DNA from: Escherichia coli
Lineage (GTDB): Bacteria > Pseudomonadota > Gammaproteobacteria > Enterobacterales > Enterobacteriaceae
Strand: one strand, 5' to 3'
NCBI RefSeq assembly: GCF_041886205.1
Contig: NZ_CP169029.1
Length of the DNA: 64,000 bases
Every line of letters starts with the position of its first letter. Positions within the stretch are counted from its first letter, which is position 1. Below are positions 60,880 through 62,914 of the stretch, piece after piece. The notes beneath the pieces are model-generated. The model ran no database searches, was not told where the DNA came from, and was given only the letters and a program-made list of their open reading frames with translations. Made by a program: the position numbers and the translations under genes.

Positions 60880-61122
60880 ATGATTTATTTATGGATGTTT
60901 CTCGCCCTGTGTATTGTCTGCGTAAGCGGCTACATCGGTCAGGTACTGAACGTGGTATCGGCGGTCTCTTCTTTCTTCGGCATGGTGATCCTCGCTGCAC
61001 TCATTTATTACTTCACCATGTGGTTAACTGGCGGTAATGAACTGGTGACGGGGATATTTATGTTTCTTGCCCCGGCTTGTGGCTTGATGATTCGCTTTAT
61101 GGTGGGGTATGGCAGGCGATAG
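60880..61122 (+). CDS. yfdY: Small inner membrane protein YfdY
   Basis: 80 aa; two hydrophobic segments; synteny. Confidence 0.7.
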   Translation: MIYLWMFLALCIVCVSGYIGQVLNVVSAVSSFFGMVILAALIYYFTMWLTGGNELVTGIFMFLAPACGLMIRFMVGYGRR

Positions 61123-61198
61123 TGGGTCAGGATGGCTCATTTGGGCAGGTGTTCACATCAGCATCAGACATGATTGTTCACCTACCATGTGACAGACG

Positions 61199-61474
61199 CT
61201 ATCGCACAGGATGAATAAAATAATTCGCCTTTGTCGGATAAGTAGGCGTGATTTCTTCTGTGAGGTTTAATGGTGGCGCATCTTCTCTCATCTTAAACAA
61301 AATCGCCTGTGATGGCTGAAGTTTTGTAGAGTGTGTGGTCGTCATCGCTGATGTTTTTTCAGTCTCTTTATAGCTCCTCTCACTTACACCACCAGAAATG
61401 GAAAATGCAAAAACATTGCATGCCATAATAGAGACCAATAAAAATAAGCTGAAAAGTATTAAGTTTACTTTCAT
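61199..61474 (-). CDS. ypdI: Small secreted/lipoprotein-like protein YpdI
   Basis: 91 aa; signal peptide with Cys (SIMAC); synteny. Confidence 0.7.
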   Translation of the reverse strand: MKVNLILFSLFLLVSIMACNVFAFSISGGVSERSYKETEKTSAMTTTHSTKLQPSQAILFKMREDAPPLNLTEEITPTYPTKANYFIHPVR

Positions 61475-61615
61475 AGAAAGTTATCCTGAAAATGGTTCAC
61501 TGAGAACCTACGATGTTATGGCTGTATTTACATATAATTAATCAATATTTACATCGATATAATAAATGACATCTCTTTGTGGTACATAAGAATAGTTCTC
61601 TGCGACAGGAAGCAG

Positions 61616-61633
61616 ATTCCTACAATTGTAAGA
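61616..61633. promoter_or_regulatory. EvgA box-like inverted repeat (TTCCTACA-AT-TGTAAGAC) in the ypdI/yfdX divergent region
   Basis: Near match to the EvgA consensus TTCPyTACA-N2-TGTAPuGAA; yfdX is a known EvgA target. Confidence 0.5.
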
Positions 61634-61769
61634 CTAAAATACTTCTTGCGATAATAACTACAACTGTAAGATAACCCTTTCAAAATGACCGTTGCTCTCT
61701 GATTTCTCATTTCATGCTCACCCAATATGATGGCGGCGTTTTCTAAAACTGTTAAAGAATGAGGTAAGT

Positions 61770-62402
61770 ATGAAACGTTTAATTATGGCTACGATGGTCA
61801 CAGCAATTCTGGCATCTTCAACTGTATGGGCTGCTGATAATGCACCGGTAGCGGCACAACAGCAAACTCAGCAAGTTCAGCAAACCCAGAAAACGGCAGC
61901 AGCAGAGCGTATCTCTGAACAAGGTTTATATGCGATGCGTGACGTGCAGGTAGCGCGCCTGGCTCTGTTTCATGGCGATCCAGAAAAGGCAAAAGAACTG
62001 ACCAATGAAGCTTCCGCTTTGCTGTCAGATGACAGTACCGAATGGGCAAAGTTCGCTAAGCCAGGTAAAAAGACCAATCTCAATGATGACCAATATATTG
62101 TCATTAATGCATCTGTCGGAATTTCTGAGAGTTATGTAGCAACTCCCGAAAAAGAAGCCGCGATAAAAATTGCCAATGAAAAAATGGCGAAAGGGGATAA
62201 AAAGGGCGCAATGGAAGAGCTTCGCCTGGCCGGTGTTGGCGTAATGGAAAACCAATATCTGATGCCACTTAAACAGACTCGTAATGCACTTGCTGATGCG
62301 CAGAAACTGCTTGATAAAAAGCAATACTACGAGGCAAACCTGGCGCTTAAAGGTGCGGAAGATGGAATCATCGTCGATAGCGAAGCACTGTTTGTGAACT
62401 AA
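61770..62402 (+). CDS. yfdX: Periplasmic protein YfdX (EvgA-regulated)
   Basis: 210 aa; signal peptide; Q-rich stretch after signal; synteny. Confidence 0.8.
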
Positions 62403-62454
62403 TGCTGACAGGCAGTATATTGAGGTAAAGGATTTAACTCCCTCCAGCCGACAA

Positions 62455-62495
62455 TTTTTTATGACCACAATACGACAGGTTGTGGTCATAAAATT
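62455..62495 (+). terminator. Probable intrinsic terminator after yfdX
   Basis: 10-bp perfect inverted repeat ATGACCACAA...TTGTGGTCAT flanked by T and A tracts. Confidence 0.5.
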
Positions 62496-62645
62496 ATTTG
62501 GCGCTCGCGGTGCTATAAACTCGCATTTTATATTCCTCAAAGTAAACCGCAATAATCCCGTGTCATCACAAATCATTTATTATGTTATGTTTTATGGTAC
62601 GCTTTAAAAAGCGTAATCATACCCTTGCTTGTAAATCACCGGCGC

Positions 62646-62663
62646 TTCTTACAGTTGTAAGAA
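62646..62663. promoter_or_regulatory. EvgA box, consensus-perfect inverted repeat (TTCTTACA-GT-TGTAAGAA) upstream of frc
   Basis: Exact match to the EvgA consensus about 250 nt upstream of the frc ATG. Confidence 0.6.
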
Positions 62664-62914
62664 TAACATCACAAATGTCGCGACTCTCTCTGATTACCAC
62701 GAATCAATATTTATCATATTCTTCTTTTCGTCCTCACTACTTACCATGCAGAAAGGAATTGGAAGTGGCGATGAAATGATTTTCAGCACTTGATACAGGA
62801 TTTTAAAAATATCTAGTGCAGCTACGACGATATTTTGCGGGTTATTTATAGAAGATATTACGCCTTAAATAAACGCTAAATTAACACATATTTAATTAAC
62901 TAATAGGTATTGCT

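Follow-up and report, generated by a model that had tools for sequence, protein, structure and literature searches.

Two EvgA-type inverted repeats between the divergent ypdI and yfdX genes of Escherichia coli and their probable assignment to separate promoters

The ypdI-yfdX intergenic region and its inverted repeats

The window analyzed here, a 64,000-nucleotide stretch of Escherichia coli DNA, carries the divergent genes ypdI and yfdX. The ypdI gene (61199–61474, minus strand) encodes a 91-aa putative lipoprotein, and yfdX (61770–62402, plus strand) encodes the periplasmic protein YfdX of 210 aa. These gene names, and those of yfdY, frc, and oxc used below, were taken from the RefSeq annotation of near-identical E. 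coli chromosomes, and the segment from 61100 to 62500 is matched in 5421 of 5426 complete E. coli genomes. The intergenic region between ypdI and yfdX spans 295 bp and has a G+C content of 34%, compared to 52% for the window. A 58-aa open reading frame on the minus strand (61549–61725), which covers both of the repeats described below, was considered and set aside; it is unannotated in every RefSeq record examined.

Within the intergenic region lies the 18-bp inverted repeat TTCCTACAATTGTAAGAC (61617–61634, equivalent to K-12 2494538–2494555), hereafter called box 1, which departs by a single mismatch from the EvgA consensus TTCYTACA-NN-TGTARGAA. It is separated by 135 bp from the yfdX ATG (61770) and by 142 bp from the ypdI ATG (61474, minus strand). 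The first-pass annotation of this DNA had flagged the palindrome at 61616–61633 and had placed it about 135 bp upstream of yfdX. The palindrome is real and the distance agrees with the measured gap, but the coordinates were one base too far to the left. Half-site-like repeats had also been described downstream. These repeats are present, yet the sequence ACAACTGTAAGAT at 61660–61672 is part of a complete second 18-mer, TAACTACAACTGTAAGAT (box 2, 61655–61672), a weaker EvgA-type inverted repeat with three mismatches whose center is 38 bp from that of box 1. Another repeat, the perfect palindrome TTCTTACAGTTGTAAGAA (62646–62663), lies upstream of frc and serves here as a register reference; it is presumably the site that had been counted as the first box when box 1 was called the second.

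A search of the 64 kb with the pattern TTCYTACANNTGTARGAA, allowing up to three mismatches, returns three matches compared to 0.46 expected, and none of 100 shuffled sequences reached three. The matches are the frc box (no mismatches), box 1 (one), and box 2 (three). Furthermore, a weight matrix built only from four K-12 boxes that lie outside the window (emrK/evgA, safA, ydeP, and yegR) gives its top three scores in the 64 kb to the same sites, with 23.0 bits for the frc box, 15.0 bits for box 1, and 12.5 bits for box 2. Both intergenic boxes, which rank second and third by the matrix, are consensus-type 18-bp inverted repeats, and box 1, whose score ranges from 15.0 to 19.7 bits, is the better match. 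When a Markov null with the AT-rich composition of the intergenic region is applied to its 295 bp, 0.0015 matches that score at least as well as box 1 are expected there by chance, and 0.0049 that score at least as well as box 2.

EvgA is a response regulator of the NarL/FixJ family that operates in the acid-sensing EvgS/EvgA phosphorelay. In 2003, Masuda and Church reportedly used AlignACE to identify an inverted repeat of 18 bp, with the half-site TTCPyTACA, in six regions that lie upstream of seven operons; one motif was described per region, and gel shifts reportedly revealed EvgA binding. Our scan of K-12 loci finds one EvgA-pattern 18-mer in each of six upstream regions, which we take to be the same six: emrK/evgA (TTCTTACGCCTGTAGGAT), frc (TTCTTACAACTGTAAGAA), yfdX (GTCTTACAATTGTAGGAA, in the opposite orientation), safA (TTCTTACAGCTGTAGGCA), ydeP (TTCTTACAGGTGTAGGCT), and yegR (TTCCTACATAAGTAGGAA). 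The K-12 EvgA box at yfdX and box 1 are identical 18-mers that agree in pattern, locus, and regulator and show no difference. A passage in PMC3720670 credits the EvgA-bound inverted repeats upstream of yfdX and frc to Masuda and Church (2003). Box 1 is the EvgA binding site already reported upstream of E. coli yfdX, and as such is an ordinary, known feature.

The response of yfdX to this regulator is likewise in print. Roggiani (2017) describes a PyfdX-yfp fusion as "directly activated by phosphorylated EvgA" and uses it as an EvgA reporter, with EvgS-dependent induction that reaches approximately 60-fold at pH 5.7 and follows the EvgS allele. The primers for this construct map to window positions 61195 and 61741, and the cloned fragment (61195–61741) includes both boxes. 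In addition, RNA-seq under acid conditions places yfdX among the most induced genes. The position of the boxes upstream of an EvgA/EvgS-induced gene is computed here, and the induction itself is drawn from the literature. The proposal of the first-pass annotation that box 1 drives yfdX agrees with these reports, and the reporter assay it had suggested has essentially been published for the yfdX direction.

Evidence for ypdI also exists. Sastry et al. (2019; PMC6892915) count ypdI among the genes of the EvgA i-modulon and list a "computationally-detected novel" site for it (Supplementary Table 4); this site, at K-12 2494486, corresponds to the reverse complement of box 2 plus flank. The ypdI mRNA is reported at 0.96–1.25 RPKM at pH 7.6, 9.7–13.1 RPKM at pH 5.8, and 2.0–3.4 RPKM at pH 4.4, which amounts to an induction of about 10-fold at pH 5.8 at a low absolute level (about 11 RPKM). 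EvgS is reported to be active in mild acid at approximately pH 5.5–5.7, and pH 5.8 is close to that range. Upon exposure to glutathione, ypdI rises 5.5-fold together with yfdX, yegR, ydeO, and emrK, such that its co-induction with the EvgA regulon is seen in two independent transcriptomes (acid and glutathione). The earlier suggestion that the box might drive ypdI as well is supported to this extent. The observation and both parts of its interpretation, for yfdX and for ypdI, are therefore already known.

Several other sources contributed less. A literature text search for the EvgA motif string returned no match, and nothing on the ypdI-yfdX promoter region was found in the CsrA-EvgA paper or the Reg-Seq preprint. 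The LHR paper was rejected as a source on this yfdX gene because it concerns a different yfdX copy. No yfdX or ypdI start sites were found in the Cappable-seq supplement, searched by coordinates, or in the Kim 2012 supplement, searched by gene names.

Half-site spacing in EvgA-regulated promoters

When all flanks were anchored on the box edge and 12 flanks were scanned across 100 offsets each for the half-site core NTCYTA, only five occurrences were found, and four of these sit at a gap of exactly 24 bp and face a real gene. These are GTCCTA for safA (K-12 L003:4047–4042), GTCTTA for ydeP (K-12 L003:6706–6701), ATCCTA for yegR (K-12 L004:6389–6384), and TTCTTA on the side of box 1 that faces ypdI (61587–61592, minus strand). 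At the same 24-bp gap, emrK carries the half-site-like sequence GTCCTC (K-12 L002:3489–3484) and frc carries CTCTGA (window 62688–62693), the latter being a one-mismatch copy of the core. Box 2 is followed after 24 bp by the promoter-proximal element CTCTGATT (61697–61704, plus strand), which contains CTCTGA and abuts the putative -35 element. CTCTGA is found identically at the 24-bp gap after box 2, after the frc box, and after the single box of six Buttiauxella yfdX promoters.

The spacing extends to the -10 region. Box 2, the frc box, and the Buttiauxella yfdX box are each followed by 24 bp, CTCTGA, 23 bp, and a -10-like hexamer, and for safA, ydeP, yegR, and the ypdI side of box 1 the order is box, 24 bp, NTCYTA, 22 bp, and a -10-like hexamer. 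These hexamers read TATATT for safA, TAATTT for ydeP, and TATTCT for frc and Buttiauxella yfdX, and they lie 22–23 bp past the half-site in every case listed (safA, ydeP, ypdI, yfdX, frc, and Buttiauxella). Thus, a core or one-mismatch half-site 24 bp from a box on the gene side is found for box 1 in the direction of ypdI (TTCTTA) and for box 2 in the direction of yfdX (CTCTGA). From box 1 toward yfdX, no in-register elements were found, and the 24-bp gap is followed there by TACAAC.

The frc promoter and the box 2 side of yfdX share one layout, in which the box is followed by 22 bp, by the shared 10-mer CTCTCTGATT, and by a -10 element in the same columns. They differ in the match to the consensus, which is perfect for the palindromic frc box and shows three mismatches for box 2, and in that frc is without a second upstream box within 100 bp. 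A hairpin with a 15-bp stem and a T-rich tail is present at 62457–62493, 55 bp past the yfdX stop codon. This structure fits a largely monocistronic yfdX transcript and a frc-oxc-yfdVE operon that relies on its own EvgA box at 62646–62663.

A similar comparison can be made with the emrK-evgA region, which like the ypdI-yfdX region has a palindromic EvgA box between two divergent EvgA-regulated operons. The emrK/evgA box is centered at about -74.5 relative to the predicted emrK start and at -109.5 relative to the published sigma-70 start of evgA. Box 1 would take up mirrored positions, about -73.5 relative to the predicted ypdI start and -112.5 relative to that of yfdX. However, emrK/evgA has only a single 18-mer, whereas the ypdI-yfdX region has a second box that would give yfdX its own site at -74.5. 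A half-site-like hexamer at the 24-bp gap is present in every EvgA-activated promoter examined except that of evgA itself. Because the evgA side of the emrK/evgA box is off register, the rule is not universal.

Two further comparisons with published data bear on this spacing rule. For ydeP, the rule predicts a start at L003 position 6666, and the leader start at -178 reported by Gorelik et al. corresponds to 6665, which is within 1 nt. In addition, the PyfdX and PemrK reporter fragments have 3′ ends at positions compatible with the predicted starts; according to Roggiani et al., who cite Itou (2009) and Eguchi (2003) for the start sites, these sites guided the design of the fragments. The PyfdX-yfp fragment ends at 61741, just past the yfdX start predicted at approximately 61738. 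The register pattern emerged post hoc from a small promoter set, and we found no description of a box-to-half-site grammar in the available literature. Whether EvgA promoters share a fixed grammar, with a box near -74 and a lone half-site 24 bp downstream at the -35 region, is in our estimation an even call. Under such a grammar, ypdI and yfdX would form a symmetric pair, with the published "yfdX box" acting as the proximal site of ypdI.

Conservation and natural alleles of the two boxes

Among E. coli alleles, the ypdI-yfdX intergenic region varies to an unusual degree, its identity falling to 88%, and it is therefore useful for footprinting. Our comparison drew on six E. coli alleles (those of the window and K-12 plus four that are divergent), a divergent lineage of Escherichia (L005), a locus on a contig labelled Yersinia vastinensis (L006), and Buttiauxella. 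All specified half-site positions of both boxes are invariant among the six E. coli alleles. The only substitutions within the boxes affect the central dinucleotide, which changes from AT to AC in box 1 and from AC to GT in box 2, and 7 bp between the boxes (61639–61645) are hypervariable among the same alleles. Furthermore, both boxes are kept with their 38-bp spacing in L005 and in L006, the latter having yfdX-frc-oxc without ypdI. Taking the six alleles, L005, and L006 together, the half-site positions of both boxes exhibit the pattern of purifying selection.

The proximal elements were examined in the same sequences. TTCTTA, on the ypdI side, is unchanged across the E. coli alleles and in L005 and is absent from L006, which is the locus without ypdI. 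CTCTGA, on the yfdX side, is represented in L005 and L006 by two one-base variants, ATCTGA and CTCCGA. The sequence GCGATAAT (61647–61654), directly to the left of box 2, shows no change among the E. coli alleles and persists in L005 and L006, although the adjoining 7 bp upstream are the hypervariable ones. This sequence reads as an extended -10 element (TGnGATAAT) located 18 bp from a TTGTAA within box 1.

The L006 locus resides on a 590-kb contig (NZ_CACVAF010000001.1), and its yfdX-frc-oxc products share 83–96% amino acid identity with those of E. coli, with YfdX at 83%. The occurrence of an E. coli-like yfdX-frc-oxc cluster with both boxes on a contig labelled Yersinia suggests horizontal transfer or mislabelling. 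The cross-species YfdX search yielded nine loci, none of which is from E. albertii, E. fergusonii, Salmonella, or Klebsiella. A 241-bp contig assigned to Limosilactobacillus vaginalis (L013) is 100% identical to the 3′ end of E. coli yfdX and is probably contamination. The ypdI gene is fast-evolving, with 67% identity between the window and L005 (2433–2657), compared to about 99% for YfdX, YfdY, and Frc. Its C-terminus reads EEITPTYPTKANYF in the window and EEMPPPFPTKANYL in K-12.

In Buttiauxella, the region upstream of yfdX (L007–L012, approximately 2860–2990) uses the half-site TCTGACA, as in the perfect palindrome ATCTGACAAGTGTCAGAC, rather than TTCYTACA. This half-site is closer to the proximal CTCTGA element than the E. 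coli box is. An evgS homologue is adjacent to yfdX in these loci, which have one strong proximal box and, about 20 bp upstream of it, perhaps a weak second repeat. The Buttiauxella box hints that the local EvgA-like regulator has a shifted specificity.

A natural rearrangement of the region is also found. In E. coli C311 (L014:843–936), a 38-bp tandem duplication, TTGTAAGACTAAAATACTTCTTGCGATAATAACTACAA, is inserted between window positions 61634 and 61655. The length of the duplication equals the box-to-box period, and the result is a series of three tandem boxes, namely box 1, the hybrid TAACTACAATTGTAAGAC, and box 2. A 94-bp query spanning the three boxes retrieved 426 records at an identity of at least 99%, which, set against 5426 genomes, is about 8%. 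Unequal exchange between the CTACAAyTGTAAGA cores that the boxes share is the probable origin of the duplication, and both of the proposed promoter registers are intact in the three-box allele.

Insertion sequences have altered the locus as well. In E. coli 3359 (L018), IS1B replaces the DNA from 82 bp upstream of ypdI through yfdX-frc-oxc-yfdV to a remnant of yfdE, and both boxes are gone. Other E. coli strains carry IS1A within yfdX or IS903B within ypdI, and the ypdI-yfdX locus is evidently a target of IS activity.

Probable assignment of the boxes to two promoters

We consider it probable, at roughly 0.7, that the ypdI-yfdX intergenic region is an EvgA operator region in which two boxes serve two promoters, with box 2 acting for yfdX and box 1 acting for ypdI. 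From the register described above, the region would contain two back-to-back sigma-70 promoters activated by EvgA, each with its own box near -74. The general layout would consist of the 18-bp box at about -74, a 24-bp gap, a half-site-like hexamer at approximately -41 to -36 that abuts the -35 element, and a -10 element 22–23 bp farther on. For yfdX, a consensus scan identifies the putative core promoter TTCTCA-16-TATGAT (61704–61731, plus strand) with a predicted start at about 61738. Its -10 element TATGAT (61726–61731) lines up in register with TATTCT in the frc and Buttiauxella promoters, and the element CTCTGA, 24 bp after box 2 on the plus strand, would occupy -41 to -36. For ypdI, the putative -10 element TATTAT (61559–61564, minus strand) falls in the same columns as TATATT of safA and TAATTT of ydeP and predicts a start at about 61552. 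The half-site TTCTTA, 24 bp after box 1 on the minus strand, would then occupy -40 to -35, and no -35 hexamer was identified for this predicted promoter.

With these starts, box 2 would be the proximal site for yfdX at about -74.5 and would lie at about -111.5 for ypdI, and box 1 would be the proximal site for ypdI at about -73.5 and would lie at about -112.5 for yfdX. The distal box (at about -112) may add affinity or cooperativity for the opposite promoter. The box flagged in the first-pass annotation thus probably serves ypdI, and the second box described here probably serves yfdX, as judged from the sequence comparisons. This assignment differs from that of Sastry et al. (2019), who link box 2 to ypdI through proximity in a motif search.

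Another reading, which we regard as unlikely, is that only box 1 functions as an EvgA site and that it activates yfdX from a position near -112, that box 2 is an inert, decaying partial copy, and that the induction of ypdI is indirect or reflects spurious divergent transcription. Box 1 is indeed the best match, with one mismatch, and would be a motif finder's likely pick for yfdX. Moreover, the 2003 paper reportedly gives one motif per upstream region, and the sigma-70 promoter of evgA is served by a box at the comparable distance of -109.5. However, substitutions in box 2 are confined to its central NN, although the neighboring spacer is hypervariable, and box 2 is kept in both L005 and L006. 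Its register relative to CTCTGA and the -10 element is the one seen for the frc box and for the sole Buttiauxella yfdX box, whereas box 1 is without in-register elements toward yfdX. The single-box reading leaves the selective conservation of box 2 and its cross-genus register without an explanation.

It is far less probable that box 1 overlaps the -35 element of another promoter directed rightward (TTGTAA-18-TGcGATAAT, start at about 61662), at which EvgA centered near -36.5 would act as a class II activator or as a repressor. Our scan does detect an extended -10 promoter-like site at 61626–61655, and the conservation of GCGATAAT in E. coli, L005, and L006 would be accommodated by such a promoter. 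Yet the number of promoter-like matches, four compared to 2.1 ± 1.7 in shuffles, shows no excess. Box 2 would fall on the start site of this promoter, which has no counterpart in Buttiauxella, and the published reporter, with its 3′ end at 61741, was built to a start site that its authors cite from Itou (2009).

Slightly more remote is the idea that another NarL/FixJ-type regulator, such as RcsB, binds the repeats instead of or in addition to EvgA. The boxes, judged by eye, are unlike the quoted RcsB pattern KMRGAWTMWYCTGS, the 18-mers fit a pattern common to all six directly EvgA-regulated regions of K-12, and PyfdX induction tracks the EvgS allele. In favor of this idea, half-sites within this family look alike, and there is a cited study in which the activity of the K. 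pneumoniae yfdX promoter under acid was RcsB-dependent. Finally, the notion that the boxes are functionless chance palindromes, raised by the abundance of short repeats in AT-rich DNA such as this region of 34% G+C, is effectively refuted by the low local expectations (0.0015 and 0.0049) obtained even under the AT-rich null, by selective conservation of the half-sites and a register kept across genera, and by the use of the yfdX promoter fragment as a working EvgA reporter.

Returning to the two-box, two-promoter arrangement, the closest characterized homologue of EvgA is BvgA of Bordetella. Promoters controlled by BvgA, such as those of fha and ptx, have inverted repeats of TTTCCTA-type half-sites, with strong upstream sites and weaker proximal sites that extend to the -35 region. 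The EvgA region resembles these promoters in its inverted repeats, in the type of half-site, and in the combination of strong upstream and weaker proximal sites. However, BvgA dimers stack at intervals of about 22 bp, whereas the EvgA boxes here are 38 bp apart. Also unlike the BvgA case, the proximal element here is a lone half-site, and 42 bp separate it from the corresponding half of the main box.

As originally stated, the finding holds nothing new, given that the box, its regulator, and the induction of yfdX are published and the yfdX promoter is a routine EvgS/EvgA reporter. What might be new is confined to the question of which box serves which promoter and to the positional grammar, and both are read from sequence. 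Should box 2 prove to be the site proximal to yfdX and box 1 the one proximal to ypdI, regulon databases would be assigning these sites imprecisely. If this refinement is true, ypdI would be a direct target of EvgA, and the search for EvgA-dependent promoters that are inducible by mild acid, or their design, could draw on the simple positional grammar. The three-box allele, which a sizeable minority of strains carry, would likewise become interpretable.
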